NCBI GenBank assembly: GCA_963837465.1
Contig: CAWINB010000001.1
Coordinates: 139,915-203,914, forward strand
Length of the DNA stretch: 64,000 nt
Source: Candidatus Doudnabacteria bacterium
GTDB lineage: Bacteria > Patescibacteriota > Doudnabacteria > UBA920
Reading direction: 5' to 3'
A program made the translations under genes and the position numbers. Every line of letters begins with the position of its first letter. Within the stretch, counting starts at the first letter, position 1. A model generated the notes under the pieces. The model was not told the origin of the DNA and ran no database searches. It saw only the letters and a list, made by a program, of their open reading frames with translations. Of the stretch, positions 39,070 to 64,000 are shown piece by piece.

Positions 39070-39073
39070 TTTT

Positions 39074-39767: not shown

Positions 39768-39799
39768 AAAAAACCATCCAGCAAATTGGATGGTTTTTT
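39768..39799. terminator. Bidirectional rho-independent terminator (aaaaaaccatccagcaaattggatggtttttt)
   Basis: Perfect 8 bp stem with A- and T-tracts on both sides; lies 3' of the giant minus-strand gene. Confidence 0.7.
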
Positions 39800-39835
39800 C
39801 TTACGCGCTCGAGCGAGGACGTTTTTGTAGTTCTT

Positions 39836-45229: not shown

Positions 45230-45315
45230 CGTAAAAAAATAAAAAGCCCGTCAAAAACGGAGCTTAATTAGAAATATTAAGTTTGTATAATCGCAAAACT
45301 GGCGAGCGTGTTTTA

Positions 45316-45337
45316 CTCTCTCTCTCTCTCTCTCTCT
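45316..45337. repeat. (CT)11 dinucleotide microsatellite in the 5' region of the giant surface-protein gene
   Basis: ctctctctctctctctctctct read directly, ~90 nt upstream of the start at 45229 (minus strand). Confidence 0.9.
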
Positions 45338-45364
45338 GCTAGCGCGTTTAAGATTTTGGACATT

Positions 45365-45667
45365 TTAGTTTTTTTCTGGTAATTTTTGTAAGGCTCGGGC
45401 TTTAATCTCTTCTAGGGTGTCGGCCGGTACTGACTTGCCGAGAATCCTTTCAGCCAGTTCCAGCATTTTATTTAAGCTTGGTTGACTTTTAAATTTATCC
45501 GCTATGATTTCCTGAGCACCTTCTTGGGCAGGAGTTTTATCCTCAACAGTTATCCCGGATAAGTGAAGCATTGAGACATAGGCGGATAAAAGTCTGGCAC
45601 ATTCTTCCAGATAAGCCGGGCTGTCTTCGGGCTTAGGGACCAATTCTAGTCTATTAGGATAATCCAT
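45365..45667 (-). CDS. Hypothetical protein (100 aa)
   Basis: No recognised domain. Confidence 0.4.
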   Translation of the reverse strand: MDYPNRLELVPKPEDSPAYLEECARLLSAYVSMLHLSGITVEDKTPAQEGAQEIIADKFKSQPSLNKMLELAERILGKSVPADTLEEIKARALQKLPEKN

Positions 45668-45831
45668 AATTACTACAGCTCTTTATACAAATATTATAGT
45701 ATATTTTACGATTTAAAGCCAGGATTGACTAAGTATTAGATTTGCTAGACATTTTGGGCCTTGTTTATTGGTCAGTTTTCCCGTATTTTTCTATGTTTTT
45801 TGCTTTTCTCCACCACCCCCACCCCCCCTGT

Positions 45832-46189
45832 TTTTGCACCCTGTTTTGTTTCTGTTTTTGGTTAGTTTTTAGTTTGGTATTTTAGTATATTTTTAGAGTA
45901 TATAGATAGTAGTATTTTAAGTATTTTAGTAGTTAGTATTTCTTTCCATTATTTTTCTTTGTCTGCCAGTGGAAATCGTGGTGATAGTCAAGGTTTGTGG
46001 TTTAAGAAAAGGTAATGGAATTAGGGTGTTTAGGAACTTTACTAGTTGAACCCGGATTCAACTAGCTGTTCAACTAGTTTGTACCCCCATTTTAAATCAA
46101 AAAACAGCCCTAAGCAAGAGCTGTTTTAGGGTAGCCAAGGTCAGCTGTTTTGGGTATAATAGGTTTGTAAAATATCGAATAAGGGTACC
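45832..46189. repeat. IR-b, copy B (inverted); overlaps the last 30 codons of the second recombinase
   Basis: Reverse complement of 33706–34061. Confidence 0.85.
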
Positions 46190-47703
46190 ATCGGCGATTT
46201 TAGAGCGGGTTGCAATCAGATCGAAGGGAGAACTCGGCGTGATCTCCAGGAGTTTTCCGTTCAGTACCCGGTTCGAGGTCAGAGAATCTACCATTTCGCG
46301 TTTTTCCGGCATGATGCCGACTTTGTACGCTGAATACGCGGTGTTCGCGCGTTCGAGAATTTCTAGCAGCTCATCGGCGACATTGCGGTTGCCGCTTTCC
46401 CAGCCAGAGAGTGTTTCCGACGTTTCCAGGCGCTCCGTGAGGAGCGCCGTTTTTCGTTGCTCGAACAGATCCTTTTCGACCAGCCGGTCGATGTAGGCAT
46501 CGGTGAGGCGGTTCAGCCGGTCGTCAATCTGGCCGAGCTTCAGCTTGAGGGCGGCGATGGCATCCTCGGTTTGCTTGTGACTGTCAGCTTTCAACCGGCG
46601 GAGTTCCTGCCAGCAGTATTGCTGCTCATCGGGAAGCAGCCGTAGTTGAAGGAGGGTTTCGAGAAATGAATTCTCGGCAACCTCTTCCCGGATCGCTGTT
46701 GTGGGACACTCGCGAGTTTGGCAGCGGTAGTAGACGAACCCCTTGTGAGTTTCGCCGATCAGGGTATGGCCGCAACCTTTGCAACTCAGCCTGCGGCGAA
46801 ACAGAAAATCATGGCGGTTGGTCCGCGTGTTGGTTTTTCCGTGGAGCACATCCTGGACGCGCTGAAAGAGCGCCTTGGAGATTAGAGGCTGGTGAGCTCC
46901 GAGGAAGGACTGACCGGAAACCTTGATGTGGATGAGGCCCATGTAGAAAGTATTGTTCAGCAATTTGGTCAGGCCGTTCATGGTGACCTGCTTGCCACTG
47001 CGCCCGCGCAAGCCGATGCGTTCGGCTTCGTGAAGTAGATCGTGAAAATTGGCCGTGCCGGTGGAATACTTTTCAAACAGATGGCGCACCAGGGGCGCAG
47101 TCTTGGGGTCTGGCTCCTTAGGTTTGCCGCTGCTGATGTTCCGATACCCCAGCGGGGCTGGCATGGGCAATATGCCTTGCTTGAGCCGTCCATAGAATCC
47201 CTTCTTGGTTTCTTCTTTGAGGTTGCGGATGAAATCGGATGCCACAACCGCTTGGATGTCCGCCGAGAGTCGTCCGCCGCGAGAATTGAGGTCCAGACCT
47301 TCGTTGGCGAAGTGGACTTCGACGCCACGGTCGATGATTTCGCCGAGGTCAGCCCAATCCTTGAGGTTGCGGGCGGAGCGGTCGATCTTGTGAATGACCA
47401 CACCGCGAACCGTGCCAGATCTCAGCCGCCTGATCATCTGGGTGAACACCGGGTGTCGGACGGCAAGAGGAAGCCATCACAGTCCCAGCAATCCGGCGTA
47501 GTCGCTCCGGGTGGCAACACGTACGGGGAAGTATCGAAAATAGACCGCTCCCTCTCATGCTTCGGGCCGTAAACGACCAAGTGCTCTGCGGTCTGATTTG
47601 TGCACTGGCCCCAGCCGCGTCCGCGGAGAATACGGAATGGCGGACGAATCAGGTCTCCATAATCCAGATCGAACAACAGCATGTCCTCCGCTCGGCACTT
47701 CAT
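46097..47703 (-). pseudogene. Second large serine recombinase with a disrupted N-terminal catalytic region
   Basis: The 450-aa ORF (46097–47449) starts inside the resolvase domain (GVVIHKIDRSARNL) and keeps the recombinase, zinc-ribbon (C..C...C...C) and coiled-coil parts. The upstream catalytic segment is scattered across three frames (...VRVATRSDYAGLLGL* ; ...DCDGFLLPSDTRCSPR*). Confidence 0.55.
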
Positions 47704-47754
47704 GCTTCGCTCTCAGATCACCGATCATATTGCTACGGACGAGTCGTCGCGTGG

Positions 47755-48471
47755 CTAAGGTTGCCACCGCCAGTTGGACCGGTATACATCAACGACGCCA
47801 AATTCTTTACCTGGGCTCCAACTACGTGACTCCCACATGAGCTGGCGAGCGCTACCGCCAAATTTACTACTGTCCAACATCACGTCGAATACTGCCTTGG
47901 TAATGTATGTAGAGAAGCCGACCTCCCGGATCGCGCTGAGCTTCGCCGCAATGTTCGGGGCTCGGCCTACCCACACCAGATCATTATTATTGCGAATTCC
48001 GCTCCGAACTACCATTATTTTGCTCGTGTCTATGCCAACGGTTTGACTCAATGGCAGGCCAGAGGGAAACGACCCCTTATAGAACGCATTAAATTCCGGG
48101 GTCAAAATTTGATTAAAAAAATAATTGATCTTGAGGCCCGCTTCGACCGCGTTCGTATTTTTCGCGCCCTCGATAAAGACGCCCATAACCCGGTCACCGT
48201 CAAAGCTTCGAATCTCACCCCCCAGCGCACGAATAATTCTCGTAGTGCCCATTAGATACGCCTTGAACACTTCAGCCGCGACCGACTGGTTAGCAATGGC
48301 CAGCCGAGTGGAGTCGTGCAGATCAGCATAAACGAAGGTAGCATCCAGGTTGACGCCCTCGTTGCCAAGGGCGAGGTCTTCGGTCTCAGGAACCACCGTC
48401 CCGTCCCGGCGTGTCCAGGCATCATGGACGACTTTGGCGGTTTCATTCTTAAGATCGTCGAGAAGAGTCAT
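47755..48471 (-). CDS. Class III nucleotidyl cyclase (CHD) domain protein, candidate Pycsar PycC-like cyclase
   Basis: Motifs ATFVYADLHDST and GDRVMGVF typical of the adenylyl/guanylyl cyclase catalytic domain; ~238 aa from the internal Met; one-nucleotide gap to the upstream TM gene. Confidence 0.55.
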   Translation of the reverse strand: MTLLDDLKNETAKVVHDAWTRRDGTVVPETEDLALGNEGVNLDATFVYADLHDSTRLAIANQSVAAEVFKAYLMGTTRIIRALGGEIRSFDGDRVMGVFIEGAKNTNAVEAGLKINYFFNQILTPEFNAFYKGSFPSGLPLSQTVGIDTSKIMVVRSGIRNNNDLVWVGRAPNIAAKLSAIREVGFSTYITKAVFDVMLDSSKFGGSARQLMWESRSWSPGKEFGVVDVYRSNWRWQP

Positions 48472-48472
48472 A

Positions 48473-48988
48473 TTAGTGAAATAGGGTTGAACGGGTTGGA
48501 GCTGTATACGCCGCAAATAACGCGAGCGCGGCAAGCCATGGAAGGAGAGCCAGCGCGAGAAACGTGAAGGCCGCTTTTAGCGCATCAAACTTTGCTGTCA
48601 GTATTTCCGAATTCCGCCACACCTGTGCCAAGAGATCGTTAACGTGCCCGTCTTCATTCTGCTGCTTGAATTGTTCGATAAAGTGGTGCTCCGTACGACC
48701 TGCTATCTGTCGAAAATAAACCAAGGACGAATTGCCTCCCTTAAGACTGGGGAATGCGCCACGATACAAAAACACAATGCTCACGCCCAAGAGAACCACA
48801 CAGATACCGGCGGACGTTGACATCGGCCAGGTTAACGCTTTGAGTGGTGGTGCGTCGGTAGCCAACACGGCTAACATTCCCGTATCTACCGCGAGTATCA
48901 CAGAAAGCTTTGAATCTACACGCGGGAAAAAGCTCAATACTCGATCGAGTTGATCTTTGCTCGCAGCGTATATAGTTTCAGTCTTCAT
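48473..48988 (-). CDS. Small transmembrane protein (2 to 3 TM), candidate cyclic-nucleotide-activated effector
   Basis: 171 aa; hydrophobic helices at ~30–75 and 140–165; translationally coupled to the cyclase. Confidence 0.45.
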   Translation of the reverse strand: MKTETIYAASKDQLDRVLSFFPRVDSKLSVILAVDTGMLAVLATDAPPLKALTWPMSTSAGICVVLLGVSIVFLYRGAFPSLKGGNSSLVYFRQIAGRTEHHFIEQFKQQNEDGHVNDLLAQVWRNSEILTAKFDALKAAFTFLALALLPWLAALALFAAYTAPTRSTLFH

Positions 48989-49153
48989 ATAGGCTTGGGG
49001 CGCAGCCTAGCAAATGCGTCTGCGCAGTAAATATGTTAAATTGCGCTCAGACAAAAGATATTATTAGAATCATAACTCTCGAATTCCGAGGCGTCAAGAA
49101 CTCAAGGCCGCATATTTGAAAGGCGAACTCGCTCGAAGTCCCGCTGGGTTCAC

Positions 49154-49477
49154 TCATGTCCGAGGAATAAACACGCCGAAAATCTTTACGATGTCCGAAC
49201 GTTCAAGCGGCTTGTCGGTCAAGTTGAACACATGCATGATGGTCGACCAGTGACACGCGAGGTTGTCCGCGAGCAACTGGGCTTGAGTGGCGAATGGCTC
49301 AAAGGGCACGCTGCGACGACTCAGAGCCGAGACACGCGTTTCAGCCAAGTGCCACTGGCCATATAGATCCTCGGGAGGACGCACGAGGACCAGATTCCAG
49401 CCTTCCCGATCCCGCGCGTTTTCGTTGATCTCAATATAACCACCATGTGCGACATGACGCCGCTCCAAAGTTGTCAT
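49154..49477 (-). CDS. Hypothetical protein (107 aa), operon gene 3
   Basis: Start overlaps the stop of the upstream gene. Confidence 0.4.
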   Translation of the reverse strand: MTTLERRHVAHGGYIEINENARDREGWNLVLVRPPEDLYGQWHLAETRVSALSRRSVPFEPFATQAQLLADNLACHWSTIMHVFNLTDKPLERSDIVKIFGVFIPRT

Positions 49478-49893
49478 CCTGCCAGGAACAATAGGATTTG
49501 CAAACAGCTCGCCACGATGAAAGAACCGGACACGTAAGGCCCGCCCACCAAAGCGGTATTTTTTCCGTCCGCAGCGGTAGCTGTGACGATCTTGGTTTCC
49601 GCGAGATGCCTATTGATCTCCTCGACGATCTCGTCAACCATCGCAATCAACTCCTCTTCTTTGTATCGATTCCTAGCAGCCGTGTCCCTTTCGGACTTCG
49701 CAATCCGCTGCTGCTCAAGTGTCGCCGCTTCGACCGCGTCGTGGTGTTGGCGCATCCTGGCGGCTAGCGCACCGATGGCGGATTCCCTTGGGGCCGGAGC
49801 AGTCTCCAGGCATCCAGAACCTCCCGCGCTGTTTGGTGACGGGCACGCGGATCCTTGGTCAAGAGCCTCTTGCCCAACTTTCCGGTTAAACAT
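49474..49893 (-). CDS. Hypothetical protein (139 aa), operon gene 2
   Basis: Overlaps the downstream gene by 4 nt (translational coupling). Confidence 0.4.
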   Translation of the reverse strand: MFNRKVGQEALDQGSACPSPNSAGGSGCLETAPAPRESAIGALAARMRQHHDAVEAATLEQQRIAKSERDTAARNRYKEEELIAMVDEIVEEINRHLAETKIVTATAADGKNTALVGGPYVSGSFIVASCLQILLFLAG

Positions 49894-49941
49894 TCACCAA
49901 TCATAAGATTTTTCTAAAAGATAGCAGCACAAGGCCCGACG

Positions 49942-51015
49942 TCAATCCCCCCTTTCGGCGCCGCCATCGAAACAAACACTGCCGTTCGAAGCCAGGGTAT
50001 CTCTAAAGTATGTTGCCAGATCGGCATTCCACACGAAGAAAGCCTGTGCTATAAGGCTGAAGGCGTCGCGATCAATCGGCTCGTCGATCCTGAAGATTTT
50101 CATCCGTACTCCGGTTTTCCCGAGTTTTCTGAGATGATCTTTCTGCCGTTCTTCAAATTGCTCGCCGTTGTAAATCCTCAGCGCCCCGTCGAAATGCGTA
50201 ATGGATTGGCTGCCCGGATCGTAAATCGCGTGAAGGTAACGGGCACCGGCGAATGGGATACGATCCCTGGGTGGAAGCTCCTCACAGACGAAATGGATTC
50301 CATCGCCACGTGGGCTCCAGCAGAATTCGGTAACTTGACTCCTGTCCCACGGCTTATCGGCCCGCATTTGCCCGAAGTGCTGTTCTCTCAATCGACCTAT
50401 GTCGTTCCAGGTCAGCGGCGCGGCATACACAATCATCTTGTACATGGTCTGCGGGAAAGAATCGCACGGACCCCAAAGAAATGGGTCGAGCCGGACGCTG
50501 ACGGAATTGGCGACACCCTGCTCATAAAACGACCGTAGTAGCCAATAAGTTGAATTGGGAGATTCGGTAGTTGTACAGACCGTGAAGTCGAACCCGTTGG
50601 CCTCAAGGGTTGAATTGTTGTAACTAAACTCCGCCAGTCTGACCATACCTTCACCATCCACGGTGACGCCGCGCAGACAATCGGCGGTGTAAGGTAGTGT
50701 CTGCGCGGAAGAGAAGGTTTCCGCTAGGATCTCCAATCGGCGGCGCGCCGCTTCATTGGTGAGGAGCGCATCTGCGACCCAGATCCGTGCAAGGCGTTCA
50801 TTCTTTCCGTGAAGTGCAAGGAAGGTCGGGTCCTGGAAGGCGGCCTCGACCGCCTTCGTCGGCAAACTCGAAAGTAACCGCGACAGGTCGGGATACAGGG
50901 ACCACGTCGACTCATTTGAGTTTTTAAGCAATTTGTCGAACGGGGCGAGCGGATCGGAAGCAAAGTCGCGCACGAGATCTTCCGGAAGCTTCACCCGTAT
51001 CCCATTGAACTGCAT
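49942..51015 (-). CDS. Hypothetical protein (357 aa), first gene of an unknown three-gene operon
   Basis: High GC; no recognised motif. Confidence 0.4.
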   Translation of the reverse strand: MQFNGIRVKLPEDLVRDFASDPLAPFDKLLKNSNESTWSLYPDLSRLLSSLPTKAVEAAFQDPTFLALHGKNERLARIWVADALLTNEAARRRLEILAETFSSAQTLPYTADCLRGVTVDGEGMVRLAEFSYNNSTLEANGFDFTVCTTTESPNSTYWLLRSFYEQGVANSVSVRLDPFLWGPCDSFPQTMYKMIVYAAPLTWNDIGRLREQHFGQMRADKPWDRSQVTEFCWSPRGDGIHFVCEELPPRDRIPFAGARYLHAIYDPGSQSITHFDGALRIYNGEQFEERQKDHLRKLGKTGVRMKIFRIDEPIDRDAFSLIAQAFFVWNADLATYFRDTLASNGSVCFDGGAERGD

Positions 51016-51199
51016 AGTCTTCTTGCCTTTCTAGTTCCAGCATATCCTGGACGCGTCCCGCTGTCCAGAAGAGCTCTAAACGGCAGTTCAACATCGCGTT
51101 TGTCGATACCTCCATCGAACACGCCCGTTCATTTGACAAGACTTCTAGGGCGGACCATTATATAAGTAGAATTAGAATATCTATTAACGTCAGCGTTTT

Positions 51200-51649
51200 A
51201 TGGTCGCTCTCGAATTTACATTAGGACACGTACACCTCAAGGTGAAAGACGTTGAAAGGGCAACTGCCTTCTATACAAATGTTTTCGGGCTTAAGGTTGC
51301 CGAGCGGGTCGGCAACTATGTATTCCTCTCGTTTGGCCAGAGGTATCATCACGACTTGGCCATACACGAAGTTCCGGCGGACGCGGCAGTGCCCGGCCTT
51401 AAAGATGTAGGCCTTTATCATTTTGCCCTTGAAGTTGCCGACATTCGGCAACTCGCATTGTTGTACCGCAAGCTAAAGCAATTAAATGTGGCCGTCAAGC
51501 CGGTTGATCACGGAATCAGCAAGGTGATATATTTCAGCGACCCCGACGGCAATGGCATAGAGGTCTACGTTGACACACGAAGTGAAACCGGACAGCAGGA
51601 ATGGCAAGGAAAATCCACGCCGCTAAACCTTGAGGATGTCATGGTGTGA
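51200..51649 (+). CDS. VOC (glyoxalase / bleomycin-resistance / dioxygenase) superfamily protein
   Basis: HVHLKVKDVERATAFYTNVFGL...HHDLA...HFALEV pattern. Confidence 0.7.
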   Translation: MVALEFTLGHVHLKVKDVERATAFYTNVFGLKVAERVGNYVFLSFGQRYHHDLAIHEVPADAAVPGLKDVGLYHFALEVADIRQLALLYRKLKQLNVAVKPVDHGISKVIYFSDPDGNGIEVYVDTRSETGQQEWQGKSTPLNLEDVMV

Positions 51650-52428
51650 GAAGAAAAACTGTAATAAACCTCGCCACCGGCCTTGGCTTTTTTGGGTTTT
51701 CTACCCTATCTGGCTGGGCGCTTCACTCGCCCGTCGCGGCACTCGTAACGGGTTTCGGCATTGTAATCATCCGTCTTCTAGTAGACATCAGGCTGAATCT
51801 ACATACAAAGATTCCGGTGGAGGTATCTTTCCTCAATAGCTACACTAAGCTGCGAGAGAGCCAATGTGAACTCTTTCGGGAGGCGGCAGCCGTAAAGCTA
51901 CGGTCTGTGACTGCCTACTTCGACAGTTTGGCAGGTGGCCATTTGCCGGTTGACAATCAGAATGAGGTCTTCGATTTACTTGAGCTTTTGTTCTGTGACA
52001 TTGATTTTGTAAGACAAATTCGTACGACTAGCTTTGGGGAAATTGAAGAGTGGGGAAATTGGTGGGGCAAGCGATATTTGGGTATCCACAAAGAGGCGAA
52101 GAAGAGAGGAGTGAAGGTACATCGCGTTTTCATCCTTCAGTCCGACGACGACGTTCAGGCGGGAGCCGATATCATGCGCGCCAACGCTGCTGAGGGCGTG
52201 GCGGTAAAGTATGTATCGCGGCGTGTGATTTCTCTGGGAGATTTCAATACCGGCAACAACTGTATGCTGTTCTATGACCGAAACGGGGTTCCAGTATATG
52301 CTCTCACGGCCGTGCACGACGAAAAAGGCGGATTTTTGGCAGCGATAATCTATAACGACGCAGCCCACATCAAACCCGTAGTTGATGCATACAGCCATAT
52401 CGATGCCCTTGCCGTCGAGTTTAGATAA
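51646..52428 (+). CDS. Hypothetical membrane protein (260 aa); start overlaps the VOC gene stop
   Basis: N-terminal TM segments; unknown C-terminal domain. Confidence 0.4.
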   Translation: MRRKTVINLATGLGFFGFSTLSGWALHSPVAALVTGFGIVIIRLLVDIRLNLHTKIPVEVSFLNSYTKLRESQCELFREAAAVKLRSVTAYFDSLAGGHLPVDNQNEVFDLLELLFCDIDFVRQIRTTSFGEIEEWGNWWGKRYLGIHKEAKKRGVKVHRVFILQSDDDVQAGADIMRANAAEGVAVKYVSRRVISLGDFNTGNNCMLFYDRNGVPVYALTAVHDEKGGFLAAIIYNDAAHIKPVVDAYSHIDALAVEFR

Positions 52429-52479
52429 CGGTGGACTTGGGACAAGCTTGTCCACCGTCTCGCAGAAAAAATGGACTTC

Positions 52480-52700
52480 CCGCCAAGTTTTCCCTCCTAT
52501 ACAAACCTTTAAGTTCTGCTATTCTATCTTTGCCACGATCAAAGCCGCCGAGCGGGGTGCTGGCCGCGCGGCAGGCTTGATCGATGAGCAAACTCATGCC
52601 GCAATCTTTTCTTTCGACTCTTGTTTGCGTTGGAGCAAATCCATTATCGCGGGCAGAAGGCGCTTCCACGTTCGATGTATGTCCCGTCTCGGGCTACCAA
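52480..52700. repeat. R-family ~230 bp repeat, copy 1 (core ctattctayctttgccacgatcaaagc...gcttccacgttcgatgtatgtcccgtctcgggctacca)
   Basis: Copies at ~55195–55430, ~59085–59345 and a truncated one at ~60105–60235. Confidence 0.75.
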
Positions 52701-52874
52701 AATGATTCAGCAGCGTAAAGCTGCTGTTTTTATTTGCTAAAACGATTCAAGGAAAACGAACCATGCGGAGGGAGAAATTCCGGTCCGCATATTTAAAAGG
52801 CAAAATCGTTCGATTCCCCAATGGGGTCGAAATTAATTCCAGTAAGTAAGAACACAATACGGGCGACATCTTAG

Positions 52875-54290
52875 TTACTTAGCGACCGCCATCAGATTGC
52901 TTGGCGGGGGGAGTGTGGAGGGTGACGTAGAACCTTTTACCATCGCATCTGTGATAATCAAAGAACTACATGTAGACCCTGGGCACGTTAGGAGCGACGC
53001 AGGCACCGGAAACGCATCGGTAAATACGTAGCCCAGTGAAGTAAATGCCGTAGCAGTAGCGAAACCCGCAATTTGACCGTCCGACACGACATAATAGGTG
53101 CTATTGGTTGCGCATCCGTGCCCGCTCGAATCGAGAGTGCAAAGAATCGAACCTTCGCGATATGGCAACGTATAGTTCCGGAACGTTGGATCTTCCAGCA
53201 ATGTGGCCGTCGACTGTTGTTGTATATCACTCCAGCGAAATCCCACGCCGTCGAATATCAATTGTGACGTGATACCTCGCTTATAATGCTGATCGGTTAC
53301 CTCGTAGATGGTACCGCCATCATTCACCAAGAACGCTGCCGGCGGCGGCCCTAACAGACTTCCTTGGGGAAGCGCCTGAATCTCTTGAAGCCCCACACTT
53401 ATGACTTTGCCGAAATCAAAGCCGTACGCGTAGAACACGGCGGGCGACGGTATCCCGCGAAGTTTACCGGCCTGTATGAGGTACACCGTGCCATTGTAAG
53501 AAACCAGCGAACCGTCGGGGTGCCAGATTACGTTTGGCGCGGCCGTTCTCGCCGGTGCCCAAAGAGTGGTGCTTCGGACTGTCCTCGGGTCCAGATACCT
53601 CCCTTGCCACCCATAGGGGTCAACCGGAACTCCGTTATAGCGTACCTCGAAGTGGAGGTGCGGGCAGGGAGAGTCCGTGGTACAGACTCCAACGCTACCG
53701 CTAACCCCGATCATATCTCCTGCGCTCACTGCCCGTCCTTCGACGGTGTTTGGATCAACCCAACTGGAGAGGTGCAAATAATATGTTTTATAGCAATTGC
53801 CATGGTCAATGTAAAGTGCATGGCAGCACTTTTCACCGGTATCCACGTGCAGTGTGCCGCTGGCGGCGGCATAGACTGGTATTTCGCCACTAGGGTCCTG
53901 ATCCGTAGTTTTGTAATCGATTCCGGGGTGCCCATCATAGTTGAGAAATGTTGGCGTGCCCGCGCCGATATACTGTCCGTTTATCACGAAAGGGATTCCA
54001 GGCATGTTCTGAAAGGAGAAGAACGTTTGGCCGTTGATCGTCGTAGCATACTCGGGATTTAGATTGGCCAACTCGCCGGTGAATCCAATCACCACGTTGT
54101 CAGATGTGTAGGAGTTGGTCATGGAGTGATCCATGACCGAGTTGATGCTCGCGGAATAGGCGGTTCTGTTTGGCAAGGGGAACTTTGACAAGTAGAACGC
54201 TGAAGAGGGTTGCGAGGGGCAGGTAGACTGAGCAAGGAGCAGTACGTCTGCGTGCAGTGCGCAAATCGCGAAACAAAGCCAAAAACGCAT
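52875..54290 (-). CDS. Secreted M23 (LytM) family metallopeptidase
   Basis: Signal peptide (MRFWLCFAICALHA); HPGIDY...D and HLHFEV zinc-binding motifs. Confidence 0.8.
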   Translation of the reverse strand: MRFWLCFAICALHADVLLLAQSTCPSQPSSAFYLSKFPLPNRTAYSASINSVMDHSMTNSYTSDNVVIGFTGELANLNPEYATTINGQTFFSFQNMPGIPFVINGQYIGAGTPTFLNYDGHPGIDYKTTDQDPSGEIPVYAAASGTLHVDTGEKCCHALYIDHGNCYKTYYLHLSSWVDPNTVEGRAVSAGDMIGVSGSVGVCTTDSPCPHLHFEVRYNGVPVDPYGWQGRYLDPRTVRSTTLWAPARTAAPNVIWHPDGSLVSYNGTVYLIQAGKLRGIPSPAVFYAYGFDFGKVISVGLQEIQALPQGSLLGPPPAAFLVNDGGTIYEVTDQHYKRGITSQLIFDGVGFRWSDIQQQSTATLLEDPTFRNYTLPYREGSILCTLDSSGHGCATNSTYYVVSDGQIAGFATATAFTSLGYVFTDAFPVPASLLTCPGSTCSSLIITDAMVKGSTSPSTLPPPSNLMAVAK

Positions 54291-54408
54291 GGTAACTCCA
54301 GTTGCCACCAGCGTACTACAGGCCTCGCCGAAAATCAAAGGGGCTCCCCGCTCCGCCCTACCCATCAGACCAGCAAGCTTGACCGGCTCTCCGACGTTTG
54401 TAATAATG

Positions 54409-55070
54409 CAATGGCTTCAATAATTAATCTGATTGTTCTAATGAAGAGGTACTTGTTTATCTTTGTAATGAGCTGTCTTTCTGCGGGTTGCAGTCGGGTA
54501 AACGTGGCGACAAATGAACCGGCGGTTCAGCCCGACGTTCGACTGAACCCGCCCCGGAACGCTTCTAAATCGCCGGTCAGCTTGATGGGTGTAACAGCCA
54601 ATGGCACCACTACGCAGGACTCTCAACCCGGCGATTGGACTACATACACGGACACTGCTTATGGCTTTAGCCTGAACATTCCAGCCGGATACGTTTATGC
54701 CACGTCGACAGCGGAGCGCGGATGGTCGCCTGTGCTAATTGTCTACGACCCAGAGAATTTACCCATAGCCAGTGAGCCAGCTGTTACTGTTTATGTTTCA
54801 ACAATCACTAGCAAGGAGCAGGAATCGCCTTCTTATCTGCTTCAGCAAGAAGGCATACCCCCGGCAGCGGCTACAGTCACCCCAACAAGGTTTGCGGGAT
54901 GCCTAGCCACCCAAATTATTATCGAGAACACGGACGGAGGATACCCGGTTGAGGACCAGATGTTCGTAGCCCACGACGGTCTTGAATATTCAATCAGATA
55001 TACCGCGCGCGACAATACGACATTCGCAAGGATTGCTTCGTCCTTTGTATTCCTCGCAACTGGTTGTTGA
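54409..55070 (+). CDS. Putative lipoprotein (lipobox LSAGC)
   Basis: Signal peptide plus lipobox; the 3' 240 nt is duplicated at 59751–59987. Confidence 0.5.
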
Positions 55071-55282
55071 CTCTTAGCTTGATACTCCGCTTCACCTTCA
55101 AAGGATGATGGCGTTTTCGTGGGGTTGAGTCCGATTAGCCCAGAGCGAAAAGAATTGGCAAGAGCTCAAGATATCCACCGAGCGGGTCAATTCTTGGAAG
55201 TTGAGCCAATGTTTCCCTCCTTTGCAAGCGTCTGAGTTCTTGCTATTCTACTTTTGCCACGATCAAAGCAGCCGCGCAGGGT
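54835..55282. repeat. ~448 bp direct repeat, copy D1 (3' end of the lipoprotein gene plus downstream R repeat)
   Basis: Near-identical to 59751–60199 apart from a diverged ~70 nt patch. Confidence 0.8.
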
Positions 55283-55430
55283 GCTGGCCGCACGGCATGC
55301 TTGATCGAGGAGAACCATTTAGGCCGCAATCTTTTCTGTAGACTCTTGTTTGCGTTGGAGCAAGCTCAGCATCCTGGGCAGAAGACGCTTCCACGTTCGA
55401 TGTATGTCCCGTCTCGGGCTACCAGGAATC
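55195..55430. repeat. R-family repeat, copy 2
   Basis: See copy 1. Confidence 0.7.
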
Positions 55431-55650
55431 CCATTCAACTTTTCCCTCCCTAAAAGAAGAATTCACCCGCAGAAATGCGGGTTTTTCATTGGCGCAGATT
55501 CAGCCCTTGGCCAGAATTGTCCACAGGCCATTGGGGAATCGAACTGACAGGCGGTTTCCCGCATGGGAAAGCGTAGTAGTGGTGCAGATTTGACACCCAC
55601 ACAAAAGGTGTGTAAACTACAAATATAAGATCATTAACCTAGAAACTTCC

Positions 55651-55920
55651 ATGAGCAAACGTATTAACATCATGCTGCCGGAAAGAACCCTGGCCGTGCT
55701 GGACCGGGTGGCTTCCAAAGGCAACCGCAGCCAGTTTGTGTCTAGGGCCGTGCTCCACTACGTGGAAATCCAGGGCAAACAAAGCCTGCGCCAGCAGCTT
55801 AAAGCCGGCTATATGGCCAATGCCGATGAGAACCTAAAGATTGCCGCGGAGTGGTTTCCCCTTGAGGAACAAGCATGGCAAAAGTCCCGCACCAGCCAAA
55901 AGGCCAAAAGCAAAAAGTAG
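55651..55920 (+). CDS. Ribbon-helix-helix (CopG-like) antitoxin
   Basis: KRINIMLPERTLAVLDRVASKGNRSQFVSRAV is the RHH fold signature. Confidence 0.7.
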   Translation: MSKRINIMLPERTLAVLDRVASKGNRSQFVSRAVLHYVEIQGKQSLRQQLKAGYMANADENLKIAAEWFPLEEQAWQKSRTSQKAKSKK

Positions 55921-56273
55921 AAGGCATCCGAAGGGGTGAAGTCTACCTCTGCTCTTTTGACCCGACGGTCGGCCACGAAATCAAGAAGACCCGGCCCGCC
56001 CTGGTCGTCCAAAACGATGTCGGCAATCGCTATGGTCCCCTGACGATTGTCGCGGCAATCACTTCCAGCGTTTCCCCTGTCCCCTATCCGGTCGAGGTTG
56101 TCGTTGAACCGACCGCCGCCAACGGCCTGGATGTCCGCTCTTCCGTTCGCCTGGACCAGATCCGCACCATAGACCGGCAGCGCCTGATTCGTCATTTGGG
56201 CGTAGTGGATTCCGCCACCATGGCCAGGGTCGATGAGGCCATCAAGATTAGCTTGGGGCTGATTAGAGTTTAG
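55875..56273 (+). CDS. MazF/PemK-family endoribonuclease toxin
   Basis: RGEVYLCSFDPTVGHEIKKTRPALVVQNDVGN is the PemK/MazF signature; overlaps the antitoxin gene. Confidence 0.8.
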   Translation: MAKVPHQPKGQKQKVEGIRRGEVYLCSFDPTVGHEIKKTRPALVVQNDVGNRYGPLTIVAAITSSVSPVPYPVEVVVEPTAANGLDVRSSVRLDQIRTIDRQRLIRHLGVVDSATMARVDEAIKISLGLIRV

Positions 56274-56278
56274 TATCT

Positions 56279-56995
56279 ATGTCGATTCACTCATTGGTCC
56301 CGGACGCGCCGACGCTCCTTGCCCTTGAACCGGAAGAACTCGCAGGCGTAGTGCTGCAATATCTAAACTCGCTACCGCCCGACGCCTCTGAGTTAAACCG
56401 ACACAACTTCAGTTTGCCCCATACGGTTCAGGAGTATCCCAGGGAATATCAGCGACAGTTGAGGAGCGCACTTATGGAAGCCTGGGTATGGCTGGAGCGG
56501 GAAGGACTTATCGCTCCGAACCCAGAACAAGGCACTGATTGGCGGTTTATTACAAGGCGCGGCCGACTACTGAAGACGGCGCCCGAGGTCGCGGCATACC
56601 GGAAGGCCGAGATGCTGCCAAAGGCGCTCTTGCATCCTACTATCGCGACTAAGGTTCATGCGGCCTTTCTGCGCGGCGAATATGACACTGCCGTATTTCA
56701 GGCTTTTCGAGAAGTCGAAATCGCCGTACGCACCGCCGGCAAGTTTAAGGCCACGGACCTTGGAGTGGATCTAATGGATAAGGCCTTCAACAAGACCAGC
56801 GGCCCGTTAACGGATTTGGCCGTCCCCGACAGTGAACGAGAAGCGACGCGGCTCATGTTTCGAGGCATAATCGGTCGTTACAAAAACCCTCATAGCCACC
56901 GGGCCGTGGCAATCATTGATCCGTCCGAAGCCATCGAACTCTTGATGCTGGCCACGCATTTACTCCGCATCATTCAGGCCGCCGCCGTGGCTTAG
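56279..56995 (+). CDS. Hypothetical protein with an Abi-associated (TIGR02391-like) C-terminal domain
   Basis: C-terminal FRGIIGRYKNPHSHR resembles the conserved motif of the TIGR02391 abortive-infection-associated family; tentative. Confidence 0.35.
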   Translation: MSIHSLVPDAPTLLALEPEELAGVVLQYLNSLPPDASELNRHNFSLPHTVQEYPREYQRQLRSALMEAWVWLEREGLIAPNPEQGTDWRFITRRGRLLKTAPEVAAYRKAEMLPKALLHPTIATKVHAAFLRGEYDTAVFQAFREVEIAVRTAGKFKATDLGVDLMDKAFNKTSGPLTDLAVPDSEREATRLMFRGIIGRYKNPHSHRAVAIIDPSEAIELLMLATHLLRIIQAAAVA

Positions 56996-57009
56996 CAGGA
57001 ATTAACCTT

Positions 57010-57879
57010 ATGATTGACGATCCAGGCGAACAATTCAAAGAGCAGCTCGACAATGCAATGAGTCACGGTAATGGTCCGAAAGCCGCCCGTTTTGCGTTGG
57101 CCTGCCTAGGCGTGATTCCCGGCGTCGGCGGGGCAATCGCCGGCATTGCTGGCTCGTGGTCAGAACGAGAGCAGGCCGAGTTTAACCGTATCTTTTCCGC
57201 TTGGCTCAAGCTCCAAGAGGATGAAATTCGGGAGATCGGCATGACCATATTCGAAGTCATGAACCGTCTCGACCAAAATGATGAAGAAATCCGAAAGCGC
57301 ATTGAAAGCCCGGAATACCTCAAGCTGGTTAAAAAATGCTTCCGGGATTGGTCGGCAGCCGAAAGTGAAGAGAAGCGCGCCCTAATCAGAAATCTTCTCA
57401 GTAATGCGGCAGCGACCAAGCTCTGCTCCGATGACGTCATTCGAATGTTCATCGAGTGGATCGATAAATATTCTGAACCGCATTTTGCGGTCATCAGGCA
57501 CATTTTTAAGACACCCGGCTCGACGCGCCGTGAAGTTTGGGCTGAAATCCACGGTGCCGACGTTCGCGAGGATTCTGCTGAGGCCGACCTCTTCAAGCTC
57601 TTGGTTCACGATTTGAGTACCGGCCATGTGATTCGTCAGCACCGGGAGAAGGATTACTATGGCAACTTCGTTAAAAGAGAACCACAGAGGAAGGGCCGCG
57701 GGGAGGCAAGCCGCGTCATGACATCTGCATTCGATGACGACAAACAATACGAACTCACGGAACTCGGCAAGCAGTTCGTACACTACACGATGAATGAAAT
57801 CGTGCCGAAGATTGCCGCTCCGAGCGCAAATCCAGTGGCGAGCGAGCAAGGCCGCGCCGCCGCACCAAGCCAGTCATAG
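57010..57879 (+). CDS. Hypothetical protein (289 aa)
   Basis: No recognised domain; adjacent to the Abi-like gene. Confidence 0.4.
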   Translation: MIDDPGEQFKEQLDNAMSHGNGPKAARFALACLGVIPGVGGAIAGIAGSWSEREQAEFNRIFSAWLKLQEDEIREIGMTIFEVMNRLDQNDEEIRKRIESPEYLKLVKKCFRDWSAAESEEKRALIRNLLSNAAATKLCSDDVIRMFIEWIDKYSEPHFAVIRHIFKTPGSTRREVWAEIHGADVREDSAEADLFKLLVHDLSTGHVIRQHREKDYYGNFVKREPQRKGRGEASRVMTSAFDDDKQYELTELGKQFVHYTMNEIVPKIAAPSANPVASEQGRAAAPSQS

Positions 57880-57907
57880 AATATTAAACTTCCTACACAG
57901 AGGCAAT

Positions 57908-58837
57908 ATGAATTCATCATTGAAACAACAACCTCTAATAGCGGAGGTCCTTCCTGGCCTCGCCGTGCTGGCGGTTCTCGCTGTATCATATTGCGTCACC
58001 CACCCTCAGCAGCTGAGCGAGCTCTTGCACCTGCCGAGCGCTGGCGTGATCGTGACCGGGATCGGTGTTGGAGGATTCTTTTTATCCTGGATCATCGGGA
58101 CCTTTTTGGACGCGGTTAGAAATGCTTGCGAAGCACTTTTGGACATGCGCTGGCCCATCGACTGGAGTTTCCTGTTTACGGCCTCAGTAGATGAAATCAA
58201 GAAACTCGACGATTCTTTTCTTGCATACTATTTTCTTGACGGGAACTATGTAGCCGGATTTGCCATTCTCCTCATCCTCAAGGGCCTTGGCCTGGTTCAC
58301 ATCCCGCTACTGCCACTCGGTATTGTTTTCCTCATCTTTCTAGCCAATGCCACATTCCTTAGAATCGAAATCAAAAATCTGATAGACCGCCAAAACGAGC
58401 AACGCGGCAATGTAGGGCCTCATTGGCCCCACATTGGGGTCTATACCCGGTTGGCACCGTCGCAGATACACCAGGGTGGAATCGGGGTGATGGCCATTCG
58501 GGACATCAAAGAAGGCACCTCTGTATTTGAACCCGATGACGACGATATGGTCTGGGTTGAGTCTGGGGTCGTAGGCGCATTGCCGGCACAGTTGCGGAAA
58601 CTCTATGACGACTTCGCGGTTATCCACGACCACCGTTACGGATGTCCCCGCAGTTTCAACAAGCTTACAATCGCCTGGTACTTAAATTCATCGAAGAATC
58701 CCAATGTGGCAAGCGATGCGGATTATAAGTTTTATGCAGTTCGTGATATTGCTCAGGGTGAAGAATTGACCGCAGACTACGATACTTATAGCGATGCACC
58801 GGAATCACTTCCAAAAACGCCCGCCAGTGTTGAGTGA
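57908..58837 (+). CDS. Membrane-anchored SET-domain protein
   Basis: 4 to 5 N-terminal TM helices, then SET motifs (GIGVMAIRDIKEGTSVFEP; YLNSSKNPN; EELTADYD). Confidence 0.6.
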   Translation: MNSSLKQQPLIAEVLPGLAVLAVLAVSYCVTHPQQLSELLHLPSAGVIVTGIGVGGFFLSWIIGTFLDAVRNACEALLDMRWPIDWSFLFTASVDEIKKLDDSFLAYYFLDGNYVAGFAILLILKGLGLVHIPLLPLGIVFLIFLANATFLRIEIKNLIDRQNEQRGNVGPHWPHIGVYTRLAPSQIHQGGIGVMAIRDIKEGTSVFEPDDDDMVWVESGVVGALPAQLRKLYDDFAVIHDHRYGCPRSFNKLTIAWYLNSSKNPNVASDADYKFYAVRDIAQGEELTADYDTYSDAPESLPKTPASVE

Positions 58838-59084
58838 GCCAAAAACCTGTAACCATAGGGGCTATTCCAGAATTTCGTCGTTTCGCTGGGATGCCGGCCA
58901 TTCCTTACCCTCTACCTTGAGCCGGTCGTAGATCCTAACGATCACGGCCAGGTACCGCCTGAGGTTGTCGCGGGCAATCCGCAGCTTGTCATCGGTCATG
59001 TGTGGGTAGAGTTTACGGATGTCGTCTAGATTGTCTTCTTCATATGGGACCATTCCGGGAGCCTACAGGAATGTCCCCCGTCTA

Positions 59085-59345
59085 GGCAAGATATCCACCG
59101 CATAAGCAAAGGTTACGGAACTTCCGCCAACTTTTCCCTGTTATTCAAAACCTTTGAGTACTGCTATTCTACTTCTGCCACGATCAAAGCCGCCATGCGG
59201 AAATGTTGTCGCACAGCGTGCTTGATCTAAGAAATAAAATCAGGCCGCAATCTCTTCTGTAGACTCTTGTTTGCGTTGAAGCAAGCTCAGCATCCTGGGC
59301 AGAAGACGCTTCCACGTTCGATGTATGTCCCGTCTCGGGCTACCA
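59085..59345. repeat. R-family repeat, copy 3
   Basis: See copy 1. Confidence 0.7.
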
Positions 59346-59525
59346 CGAGTTTCCGTTATCGAGGGATGTTGAAGCATCAAGCTGCCTAGAAAAGTTCTAG
59401 TCGTTGATGCGTCACAAAATCCAATCAATAGTGTAAGCTCGCAAAAACACGACCAACGTTGATCATGTTTTTGTTAAAATAATTACAAAATTTTAAAATT
59501 GTGGGTTTGACAAACAAGCCAGATT

Positions 59526-59987
59526 TTGGTAAACTATATATACAAAGTGCTATTTCGGCACTTTCTTTTTTTAAGAAACAAAATGCCTAACTCTTTATCA
59601 CAAGTCGCTGTAAAAGAGATTGTTCCTACAGGTCTAACCAAGCTCGACTATGGAACTTTTGACATATTGCTGGAAAAGTCCAATCCCTTTTCTGCCGAGA
59701 ACCCAGTTTTTGATTTAACGGGAATTACCAGGACCAGGAATCACCCTCATATCTGCTTCAGCAAGAAGGCATACCCCCGGAAGCGGCTACAGTCACCCCA
59801 ACAAGGTTTGCGGGATGCCCGGCCACCGAAATTATCGCCAAAAACACTGCCGGAAGGATACCCGGTTGAGGACCAGATGTTCGTAGCCCACGACGGTCTT
59901 GAATATTCAATCAGATATACCGCGCGCGACAATACGACATTCGCAAGGATTGCTTCGTCCTTTGTATTCCTCGCAACTGGTTGTTGA
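59526..59987 (+). pseudogene. Duplicated 3' fragment of the 54409–55070 lipoprotein gene fused to an unrelated 5' leader
   Basis: The last ~45 aa are identical to the lipoprotein (GYPVEDQMFVAHDGLEYSIRYTARDNTTFARIASSFVFLATGC); upstream reading is frame-shifted relative to D1. Confidence 0.5.
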
Positions 59988-60199
59988 CTCTTAGCTTGAT
60001 ACTCCGCTTCACCTTCAAAGGATGATGGCGTTTTCGTGGGGTTGAGTCCGATTAGCCCAGAGCGAAAAGAATTGGCAAGAGCTCAAGATATCCACCGAGC
60101 GGGTCAATTCTTGGAAGTTGAGCCAATGTTTCCCTCCTTTGCAAGCGTCTGAGTTCTTGCTATTCTACTTTTGCCACGATCAAAGCAGCCGCGCAGGGT
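59751..60199. repeat. ~448 bp direct repeat, copy D2 (includes the truncated R copy 4)
   Basis: See D1. Confidence 0.8.
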
Positions 60200-60236
60200 A
60201 CTCTGTGCGCGCGGCAAGCTTGATCGATGAGCAAAC

Positions 60237-60575
60237 TTGGGAGTGGCAAAATCTTTTATGAAAACTATTATAAAAACCGCCCTGTTTAATTCTCTCTCAA
60301 CGGCAGTTTATGTAGCGCTGGTAGGGTCGTTTTTTTACTTAGCCGGGCAAAAAAAATTCGGCGATGGACATACTGTGTTTATCCCTATTTTCCTTTTAAT
60401 GCTCTTGGTATTTTCCGTCGCGCTAACGGGAGCGTTAATTTTTGGCCGGCCCGTGCTTTGGTATTTGGAAGGCAAAAAGCAAGACGCTCTGTCGCTACTG
60501 GTTTATACCTTAGGAAGCTTTTTTATTATCACATTGCTCGCGTTCCTTGGTATGATAATCTTTATACACCCATAG
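60237..60575 (+). CDS. Small three-TM membrane protein
   Basis: 112 aa; host-like AT-rich composition. Confidence 0.45.
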   Translation: MGVAKSFMKTIIKTALFNSLSTAVYVALVGSFFYLAGQKKFGDGHTVFIPIFLLMLLVFSVALTGALIFGRPVLWYLEGKKQDALSLLVYTLGSFFIITLLAFLGMIIFIHP

Positions 60576-60803
60576 TGGATTGGGAAAATTAATTAAGAAC
60601 CTAATTCTTAAATTCCGCCTACGAATTATTTTTTTAAATAGGTTCTATTTTTTTGGGCTAATTGTCAATCGTAAATTGTCAATTGTTGTTTACTCGTGGC
60701 TGGCTTCAGGGAGTTTCAGACTATATTAATTAAACTTAAACTAAAACCCTGCTAATCTTTTGGCCGGATTTTATGGTATCAAGATTACGCTTTTGCAATA
60801 AAT

Positions 60804-63467: not shown

Positions 63468-63551
63468 AAAATCAGGTTAATGTTTATTTTGGTTTATTAT
63501 AGCATAAATTATACGATAATGGTTGGTTTTTGGTGCGGAACAGCTCATAAA

Positions 63552-63596
63552 AATAAAAAGGATTCCCCTTACAACAAAGGGGAATCCTTTTTATTT
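63552..63596 (-). terminator. Rho-independent terminator after the FMN-reductase-like gene
   Basis: Hairpin aaaggattcccctt-acaaca-aaggggaatccttt followed by a T-tract on the minus strand. Confidence 0.6.
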
Positions 63597-63602
63597 TCAG
63601 GT

Positions 63603-63959: not shown

Positions 63960-64000
63960 TGTCTGGTTGGGATGTTTGCCCGCGCGGTTTTTTACTTCAT

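Follow-up and report, generated by a model that had tools for sequence, protein, structure and literature searches.

How did a GC-rich block come to lie in the chromosome of a Candidatus Doudnabacteria bacterium, and does it belong to that chromosome at all? The block occupies positions 46191-60237 of a 64,000-nucleotide stretch of contig CAWINB010000001.1 (assembly GCA_963837465.1, positions 139,915 to 203,914), which is called the window here and on which all coordinates are counted. An original prediction, made from the letters alone, had described an island of 55-62% GC at 46097-60235, entered by way of a degraded serine recombinase, and had offered two accounts of it, a recently acquired foreign island or a chimeric contig. 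The evidence set out below makes it very probable that the block is a horizontally acquired island which a large serine recombinase (LSR) integrated at a tRNA gene in a Doudnabacteria-like chromosome, and that a second element, here called E1, later inserted beside it.

Composition and limits of the island

The block has a GC content of 52.35%, as against 44.7% for positions 1-46190, and windows of equal length to its left reach a maximum of 47.2%; the means of 1-kb windows differ likewise (52.3% in the island, 44.7% to the left; Mann-Whitney p = 2.6e-7). The abrupt change that had been placed at about 46.1 kb is a real step, from 30-41% to 49-58% GC over ~300 nt, and is located at 46190. The predicted level of 55-62% is too high, as merely 29% of the 300-nt windows within the island reach 55% and 2% reach 60%. 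That every gene inside is GC-rich holds loosely (49.7-57.6%), but the range overlaps that of host genes (37-52%), and the last open reading frame (ORF; 59526-59987) is only 45.5% GC. At the right edge, predicted at ~60.24 kb, the position proved roughly correct, in that island-derived sequence terminates at ~60255 with the stop of a truncated repeat, r4, but there is no simple return to host GC: an AT-rich stretch at 59.3-59.75 kb has already fallen to 36-38% before the edge, and positions 60.8-63.5 kb, in an otherwise host-like flank, rise to 52.7%.

That last rise is due to a gene for a Ser/Thr/Gly-rich surface protein, and so it illustrates how a host-like gene can attain island-like GC by amino-acid composition alone. 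That the whole region is native and owes its GC to gene content is nonetheless scarcely credible, and is contradicted by the present data. The genes of the island have elevated GC at all three codon positions, and tetranucleotide usage, normalised for base composition, correlates between island and host at r = 0.57-0.59, as against 0.92-0.95 between host segments; the right flank (60256-64000), at r = 0.77 to the host, has host-like words. Sliding-window GC and tetranucleotide counts thus agree that composition is non-uniform and the island unlike its host. The island also holds attachment (att) sites and a recombinase remnant, and close homologues of it stand in the same arrangement in another phylum.

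The left boundary and the recombinase remnant

The left edge of the island (46190) coincides with a core for site-specific recombination, TACCA. The same letters close an intact tRNA-Glu(CTC) gene at 31593..31667 (+ strand; ARAGORN; Rfam 60.6 bits; 3' end ...GCGCTACCA), whose last five bases (31663-31667) are the attB core. Between the two lies E1 (31668..46190), an intact integrative element recognised by Pfam and PHROGs matches and by a reading of the att sites. With t for the tRNA gene, a and b for the left and right ends of E1 and i for the island, and with a slash for each junction, the core TACCA/TGGTA is found at three sites: at 31663-31667 between tRNA and a, at 33703-33707 in inverted form between reversed copies of a and b, and at 46186-46190 between b and rec2, the recombinase remnant with which the island begins. 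The junction of tRNA-Glu and E1 reads ccgtagcgc TACCA agaccaaac and that of E1 and rec2 reads cgaataaggg TACCA tcggcgat, which from sequence places the boundaries t/a at 31667/31668 and b/i at 46190/46191. The inverted site belongs to a segment X (33595..34070; core TGGTA at 33703-33707), recognised through inverted repeats I1/I2 and alignment; because it is the exact reverse complement of a hypothetical join of 46190 to 31668, that is rc(b.a), X is an inverted internal copy of the E1 attP junction.

Conceptual removal of E1 leaves tRNA-Glu ...GCGCTACCA/TCGGCGATTTT..., in which the tRNA gene is followed at once by the 3' end of rec2, so that the sequence known as IR-b copy B (45823..46190, ending GGTACCA, core TACCA at 46186-46190) is the right arm of E1. 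The original prediction had seen in this copy a physical link between island and host; it is instead the right end (P' arm) of a separate element, outside the island, and it provides a false C-terminus for the rec2 ORF. E1 would thus have integrated after the island, into the attL core of the island between tRNA-Glu and rec2, displacing the island 14.5 kb from tRNA-Glu and giving rec2 its foreign C-terminus. The junction predicted after loss of E1 is GTAGCGCTACCA/TCGGCGATTTT, and that predicted for an E1 circle is AATAAGGGTACCA/AGACCAAACTT.

The LSR body of rec2 (46191..47452, - strand; ORF 46097-47449), identified by Pfam and by its full-length relatives, is incomplete at both ends. It matches positions 52-143 only of the Pfam Resolvase profile, a complete catalytic domain with the nucleophilic serine being absent, and it lacks the first ~57 residues (the 510-aa homologues begin MNQYFAYIRVST...), with a stop codon in the upstream frame. 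The Recombinase domain (PF07508, 7.9e-11) and the zinc ribbon (PF13408, 3.9e-07) are retained. At the other end the native sequence is cut after ...SKIADG at the core and is followed by E1-derived sequence; the closest relatives, 510 aa long and 86-89% identical, all read ...ADG/SPRRDIHRTW...QEKxAA and then stop. Entry by a now-degraded serine recombinase, as had been proposed, is therefore borne out by a remnant that has neither its catalytic Ser nor its native C-terminus. Recent acquisition is not, since the recombinase has become inactive and another element has meanwhile inserted beside the island.

An attachment site inside the recombinase gene

The last 35 codons that rec2 lacks persist 6.5 kb away in r1 (52444..52699, - strand), the detached 3' end of a rec2-type gene (...G/SPRRDIHRTWKRLLPAIMDLLQRKQESKEKIAA, then stop) with ~150 nt of downstream sequence, whose core TACCA at 52695-52699 forms an attR-type end. 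Alignment and nhmmer give two further full copies, r2 (55166..55424, - strand; core ending at 55424; profile positions 1-258) and r3 (59087..59345, - strand; core ending at 59345), and the truncated r4 (60082..60255, - strand; profile positions 90-259), which has no core and no P' arm and is the last island-derived sequence. Each of r1, r2 and r3 ends in GGGCTACCA, and their reverse strands encode G SPRRDIHRTWKRLLP...QES.E.IAA followed by a stop, the C-terminus that is absent from rec2. The repeat is ~258 nt long and its copies are 75-90% alike; one half of every copy belongs to the recombinase coding region, and in the other, non-coding half no reading frame is conserved across copies. The 30 nt next to the core are conserved at 29/30 to 30/30 positions among r1-r3 and the related contigs L003 and L009, the rest of r being ~70% identical.

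The origin of this arrangement is seen in contigs of 55-58% GC (L003-L008) that hold an unsplit relative, 88% identical, in which the counterparts of 46183-47452 and of r1-r3 align to adjacent, contiguous positions; in L003, to which rec2 has 84.6% nucleotide identity, the gene body extends to position 11435 and r starts from 11428. In these contigs the gene runs uninterrupted through GA/TGGTA/GCCCGAGACGGGACATACATCGAAC, 35 codons before its stop. Because unsplit relatives read through both core and r, the putative attP of the rec2 family, centred on GA/TGGTA/GCCCGAGACGGG, is shown to be intragenic, within the 3' end of the recombinase gene. Its P' arm resembles the 3' half of a tRNA (TGGTAGC...ATCGAAC). 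A crossover by the LSR in the TGGTA/TACCA core, between the intragenic attP and the 3' end of tRNA-Glu, would leave the recombinase body beside the tRNA gene and send the last 35 codons with ~150 nt, that is r, to the far end of the element.

With a single recombinase body, three complete r ends and a fourth that is truncated, the island is made up of three modules and a fragment, bounded by r repeats, where the prediction had seen a single unit. Module 1 extends over 46191-52699, module 2 over 52700-55424 including r2, and module 3 over 55425-59345 including r3; modules 2 and 3 have no recombinase. Core and P' arm stand together at 52699, 55424 and 59345, and the core of rec2 at 46186-46190. 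Two marks of a genomic island are present, a differing composition and a recombinase at one end with att sites at both ends.

As an RNA gene the repeat r was rejected: it has no Rfam match at E <= 1, ARAGORN found nothing in it and its folding z-score is -0.37, covariation being beyond judgement with three sequences only. Its non-coding half includes a ~20-bp imperfect hairpin (GATCAAAGC...GCTTGATC) and also occurs alone, without core or coding tail, at 60082-60255 of the window and 11873-11999 of L003.

Continuity of the contig

Among named sequences DnaB is closest to proteins of Candidatus Doudnabacteria and the 'Patescibacteria group' (82-85% identity; the best Doudnabacteria matches 84-85%), and the host is therefore a Doudnabacteria-like member of the Patescibacteria, or Candidate Phyla Radiation (CPR). 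The possibility that an assembler joined to this chromosome, at repeats, a GC-rich block from another organism draws on three features of the contig: on the left the link is E1, which ends in perfect inverted repeats of ~363 nt, on the right it is an exact repeat of 345 nt, and a search for an independent assembly with the right junction found none. The 46190 junction, however, coincides exactly with the att core and with the split codon of homologous recombinases, and a Logan short-read unitig (L002, ERR10755945) that spans 50767-46161 crosses it by 30 nt and stops only at the start of a repeat. This unitig was built separately from the deposited assembly (k=31 is inferred), possibly from shared reads.

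Evidence from both flanks points the same way. A heptad motif of the host, (GTYAATY)n, was found by motif search at 13651-13680, 14068-14097, 31008-31308 and 60657-60686; its 14 matches, where 0.64 are expected, lie in host intergenic sequence only, with none in E1 or the island. With this motif and host-like tetranucleotide usage on either side, a chimera would need two independent mis-joins. The same architecture recurs at seven other Patescibacteria loci, and exact-sequence look-ups placed seven host or E1 proteins and three island proteins, plus the M23 peptidase of the island, on one 699,532-bp contig. A chimeric contig, the second of the two accounts originally offered, is very unlikely and is not supported by the junction on the att core, the unitig across it or the host motif on both flanks.

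Relatives in other genomes

A scan of the family at one genome per species gave 79 loci. At all seven Patescibacteria loci that could be assessed, the recombinase body ends where it meets the 3' end of a tRNA gene lying in convergent orientation. The tRNAs are Ala, Glu, Gln, Arg, Ala, His and Arg, and the loci come from Paceibacterota, Doudnabacteria, Saccharibacteria, Liptonbacteria, Parcubacteria and, in two cases, one unclassified assembly. Of the non-Patescibacteria loci, 49 were scanned for tRNAs; none has one at the end of the recombinase match, and in ~28 of these 49 the tail is contiguous with the recombinase body. Among the loci sampled, Acidobacteriota carry the gene unsplit, and each Patescibacteria genome that could be assessed carries it split at a tRNA gene. 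The Doudnabacteria contig L032 has an integrated element of 5.8 kb with its two ends preserved: the tail end at 5486 reads x/TGGCA GCCCGTCTCGG... (x being sequence other than the recombinase body) and encodes GSPSRIVLRTW..., and the body end at 11263 reads ...KYSDG/TGGCA and is followed by a convergent tRNA-Glu(CTC) at 11257.

The best named match of rec2 is on a Bryobacterales chromosome, L009 (67-68% identity), and in a neighbour-joining tree rec2 and L003 together are sister to L009, the Patescibacteria copies being scattered among those of Acidobacteriota. On L009 an unsplit rec/r is followed by homologues of the Ymh (75%), MazF (68%) and RHH (78%) proteins of the island and then by x/r', which is the layout of module 3 between r3 and r2. 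A Terriglobia chromosome, L035, likewise has rec/r, ~3.1 kb and x/r', with a core different from that of L009, and an Acidobacteriaceae locus, L019, has a pair of Pycsar genes, like those of module 1, beside its recombinase.

Among further observations on the family, at the Parcubacteria locus L069 the recombinase is split at tRNA-Arg and shares 83% identity with a copy from Acidobacteriota that is unsplit (L042 and L036 are both Acidobacteriota), and at the Saccharibacteria locus L038 (~39% GC) the 4 kb around the recombinase are 44-49% GC. The idea that Acidobacteriota have no attB through tRNA genes without an encoded CCA was refuted, as nine of ten of their tRNAs end in CCA, as against 21 of 55 at Patescibacteria-type loci.

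Origin and history of the island

The x/r' layouts of L009 and L035, the Pycsar pair of L019 and the backbone genes of L003, which match Acidobacteriota loci best in a panel biased towards Acidobacteriota, argue that the composite pre-dates its arrival in the Doudnabacteria-like host and that the family is associated with Acidobacteriota. To judge from these sequences, the element family would have come from higher-GC bacteria whose nearest named relatives are Acidobacteriota. The multi-r composite would be largely older than its arrival here and would have entered en bloc, by recombination of the rec/r3 attP with the 3' end of tRNA-Glu, rec2 decaying after integration; the predicted island-circle junctions are TCTCGGGCTACCA/TCGGCGATTTT. 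Of the two accounts originally offered, the foreign island is thus the one that composition, att sites, the recombinase remnant and relatives in higher-GC bacteria support.

The immediate donor is less certain. By best named matches the DnaB of the host is Doudnabacteria-like and rec2 is nearest to Bryobacterales, but word usage does not discriminate between donors, the closest contigs carry no taxon and copies of the family exist in Patescibacteria. A tetranucleotide call for an Acidobacteriota-like donor (r = 0.90) was withdrawn, since a control gave the same correlation with any higher-GC genome, Patescibacteria and Proteobacteria among them; the signal was retained solely as a sign that island and host differ.

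A genuine island could also have been acquired from a higher-GC lineage of Patescibacteria and not directly from Acidobacteriota, a route that we regard as possible though on the unlikely side. At least nine Patescibacteria assemblies, some of them 55-59% GC, have recombinases of the rec2 family, the tetranucleotides of the island fit high-GC CPR loci (0.79-0.81) as well as they fit Acidobacteriota (0.75-0.83), the C-terminal domain of the M23 peptidase resembles a CPR surface-protein domain, and a survey attributes most horizontal gene transfer into Patescibacteria to other Patescibacteria (PMC12455944). Against such a route stand the identity of rec2 to complete CPR copies, only 45-53% where the Bryobacterales recombinase reaches 67-68%, the presence in Bryobacterales of the module 3 cassette together with its flanking r sites, and the backbone of L003 with its best matches, in the biased panel, among Acidobacteriota loci.

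The multiplicity of r sites admits a different account, in which they are not remnants of decay but working sites of cassette recombination: like an integron, the LSR would capture recombinase-less x/r circles, either at its attP or at sites resembling attR, and shuffle them. Core and r mark the exact limits of modules 2 and 3, with unrelated sequence right after each core, and two Acidobacteriota chromosomes with the cores TGGTA and GGTGC both show rec/r, ~3.1 kb and x/r'. The conservation of r, nearly complete in the 30 nt next to the core and ~70% in the remainder, would suit such a role, and since r is like the 3' half of a tRNA, x/r could serve as a pseudo-attB. We nevertheless hold this account to be improbable: extra r sites were seen in only ~3 of ~60 related loci, no circular cassette junction was observed, characterised LSRs, to our knowledge, recombine attP with attB only, and hairpins after the r1 and r2 cores resemble post-tRNA sequence, as would be expected of true attR sites. 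These hairpins, at 52708-52726 (9 nt past the r1 core) and 55465-55482 (41 nt past the r2 core), are like intrinsic terminators. As such hairpins are expected just downstream of a tRNA gene, they are suggestive, and only suggestive, of modules 2 and 3 each opening with flanking DNA captured from an earlier host.

Several observations weigh against an island acquired by an LSR at tRNA-Glu. A search for an empty site among relatives found none: the metagenome collection does not contain the exact sequence of this tRNA-Glu, and the best iPGM relatives (~65% identity), on syntenic contigs, keep tRNA-Thr and tRNA-Trp, with no tRNA-Glu there. The right junction (~60255) is not a recombination junction, because r4 has no core, and exact look-ups of four proteins found it in no other assembly. 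Short-read assemblers can mis-resolve both the 345-nt repeat on the right and the ~363-nt inverted repeat on the left, and the Logan contigs and the deposited assembly may share reads. The taxonomy of the donor is weak, in that tetranucleotides match any higher-GC genome equally well and the recombinase relatives at 86-89% identity sit on contigs with no taxonomic assignment; the M23 protein was rejected as a taxonomic marker, its relatives coming from mixed phyla. Finally, the non-recombinase sequence that directly follows the core in modules 2 and 3 is not predicted by simple accretion and decay.

Modules and cargo

The genes listed in the original prediction (recombinase, cyclase, transmembrane (TM) protein, VOC, M23, RHH-MazF, Abi-like or Ymh, and SET) were all confirmed. 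Module 1 comprises rec2, an 89-aa ORF, PycC, PycTM, three orphan genes, a VOC protein, a DUF6879-like protein and r1. Its Pycsar genes (47755..48988, - strand; PADLOC, Pfam and gene calls) consist of a PycC cyclase (47755-48471 by the Logan gene call, the ORF extending to 48534; - strand; PADLOC PDLC00766, 1.8e-82, profile positions 1-230 of 232) and a PycTM effector (48473-48988, - strand; PADLOC 2TM effector 5e-54; Pfam PycTM 6.8e-14). The two genes lie one base apart and both profile matches are full length, and by sequence PycC and PycTM are a complete Pycsar pair.

Upstream of the pair stand three co-directional orphan genes (49154..51015, - strand) encoding proteins of 357, 139 and 107 aa, for which Pfam, NCBIfam, PADLOC and PHROGs returned zero matches; a confident structure model was obtained and no solved structural relative was found for it, and the family of the 357-aa protein numbers ~544 clusters. 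A VOC/glyoxalase-fold protein (51200-51649, + strand; Pfam, NCBIfam) and a DUF6879-like protein (51646-52428, + strand; NCBIfam, with a Pfam match under the family cut-off) complete the module.

Module 2 proper (52700..55165) opens with the terminator-like hairpin at 52708-52726 and encodes the M23 peptidase (52875-54365, - strand; Pfam) and a putative lipoprotein (ORF 54210-55070, likely start 54441 as read from the sequence). Module 3 proper (55425..59086, + strand; Pfam, NCBIfam) encodes an RHH antitoxin (55651-55920, + strand; RHH match of 17.2 bits, below the Pfam cut-off of 26) and MazF (55875-56273, + strand; PF02452, 2.6e-34), followed by a Hypoth_Ymh/TIGR02391 protein (56279-56995, + strand; Pfam, NCBIfam), a 289-aa orphan (57010-57879, + strand) and a TM+SET protein (57794-58837, + strand; Pfam, NCBIfam). 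The 89-aa RHH gene lies upstream of mazF and overlaps it by 46 nt, the arrangement of a type II MazEF pair. The annotated cargo is thus, on present annotation, mostly anti-phage or addiction genes (Pycsar, RHH-MazF, Ymh-family), which would act by abortive infection in the case of Pycsar and as addiction or stress toxins in that of MazEF.

The fragment of a fourth module (59346..60081) consists of an AT-rich stretch and a hybrid ORF (59526/59584-59987), the C-terminus of which is a duplicate of the one in the lipoprotein of module 2. The end of module 2 is connected to the r4-ended fragment 59346-60255 by an exact direct repeat of 345 nt (54938..55282, + strand, and 59855-60199; spacing 4917 nt), which brackets a 4917-nt unit made up of the remainder of r2, module 3, r3 and module 4. 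Homologous recombination between the copies could delete or excise this unit; the repeat is a source of assembly ambiguity as well. A phage origin for the island was rejected, as no relative was found in viral contigs and none of the six orphan or poorly annotated island ORFs submitted to PHROGs gave a match.

Element E1 and the flanks

E1 encodes a full-length LSR, rec1 (31627-33153, - strand), an HTH protein (33245-33445), a TraG/VirD4-like ATPase (34117-36909), a nicking Rep-like protein (36956-37837), RadC (39074-39556) and a 1797-aa surface protein (39836-45229, - strand), all assigned by Pfam or PHROGs. Although rec1 and rec2 are only 26% identical, their alignment extends up to the residue at the core, which lies at the same position in both genes, and the two elements are therefore of the same design. 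With X inside E1, the segment that holds rec1 and the HTH gene (31776-33594) is flanked by 113-nt inverted repeats, and the 11.7-kb cargo of E1 by ~363-nt perfect inverted repeats; the E1 core GGTACC is palindromic. A split IS630-like transposase (29433-30480, - strand; HTH ORF 29983-30480 and DDE_3 ORF 29433-29906) adjoins the tRNA-Trp/Thr/Glu cluster, so that the neighbourhood of these tRNA genes is an accessory-gene region even without E1.

The host-like right flank (60256..64000; motif, tetranucleotides, Pfam) encodes a small membrane protein (60258-60575), an 887-aa surface protein (60804-63467, - strand) and an FMN reductase (Pfam). The window therefore holds two very large Ser/Thr-rich surface proteins, one in E1 (39836-45229) and one in the host flank (60804-63467). 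The C-terminal domains of the 887-aa protein and of the M23 peptidase match one and the same ORF in L032.

Significance

Genomic islands at tRNA genes are textbook knowledge. Islands in Patescibacteria have already been surveyed (PMC12455944), and the island described here is of a known general kind; its unusual part is the integration module, in which an intragenic attP, a bacterial LSR and tRNA 3' targets are combined. A bacterial LSR that targets tRNA genes from an intragenic attP is an arrangement undescribed in two reviews (PMC5704250, PMC8371274). The cargo suggests that a 0.7-Mb genome keeps a complete Pycsar system plus other abortive-infection or addiction modules.

If the pattern of split and unsplit genes reflects repeated transfer between phyla, it offers a lead on the partners of uncultured episymbionts. 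A bolder extension, to which we give little credence, is that LSRs with a tRNA-mimicking P' arm repeatedly move defence cassettes between Acidobacteriota and Patescibacteria, that x/r sites are secondary, attB-like docking sites which make the arrays a cassette platform driven by the LSR, and that the link between the phyla is one of physical hosts. Were such a recurrent link true, Acidobacteriota would be the physical hosts of these Patescibacteria.

Comparison with known systems

The Pycsar genes of module 1 follow the known pattern of an adjacent PycC-type cyclase and 2TM PycTM effector, and differ from it in that the effector gene precedes the cyclase and in their Patescibacteria host. An integron was rejected as a model for the array of r sites, there being no tyrosine integrase and no attC-like sites, and the repeats being ~258 nt long and half recombinase coding sequence. 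Among characterised LSRs (phiC31, Bxb1, A118, TP901-1, SPbeta SprA, CcrAB) attP lies outside the gene, and the targets are protein-coding genes or intergenic sites. The rec2 family shares with them, as they are generally known, the Resolvase and Recombinase domains, the Zn ribbon and the coiled-coil region, as well as a short crossover core and no long identity between attP and attB; unlike them, it has an intragenic attP whose P' arm resembles the 3' half of a tRNA.

The layering of the island resembles the tandem accretion of integrative and conjugative, integrative and mobilizable, and cis-mobilizable elements (ICEs, IMEs and CIMEs) at one attachment site, as in ICESt1/ICESt3 of Streptococcus thermophilus (PMC5704250). 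Older modules have decayed to att-flanked, recombinase-less units that are CIME-like, and two distantly related recombinases (26% identity here) have a common target; unlike in those systems, both recombinases are LSRs and the target is the 3' end of a tRNA gene, whereas in that review elements with serine recombinases insert within protein-coding genes and tRNA 3' ends are the targets of tyrosine integrases (PMC5704250). The landing of E1 on the tRNA/rec2 junction would be tandem accretion of the sort described there and for tRNA-seeded islands (PMC5704250; 10.1101/2020.12.28.424599). Such additive islands are built in Prochlorococcus by tycheposons (bioRxiv 10.1101/2020.12.28.424599), which share with the present island defence genes among the cargo and a streamlined host genome. 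Tycheposons, however, use tyrosine recombinases and leave partial tRNA copies behind; in the present island an LSR takes their place, and what recurs is the 3' end of the recombinase gene itself.

The closest parallel to the split gene is found in the SSV-type 'suicidal' tyrosine integrases of archaea, in which the att site lies in the gene and integration partitions it, and self-disrupting recombinases of this kind are described as known only in archaea (PMC8371274). The rec2 family likewise has its attP inside the recombinase gene, as seen in unsplit homologues and in the split copies of the window and of L032, and differs in being a serine and not a tyrosine recombinase, in a bacterial and not an archaeal host. 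Because only the last 35 codons are exchanged upon integration, an integrated LSR of this family may still be active.

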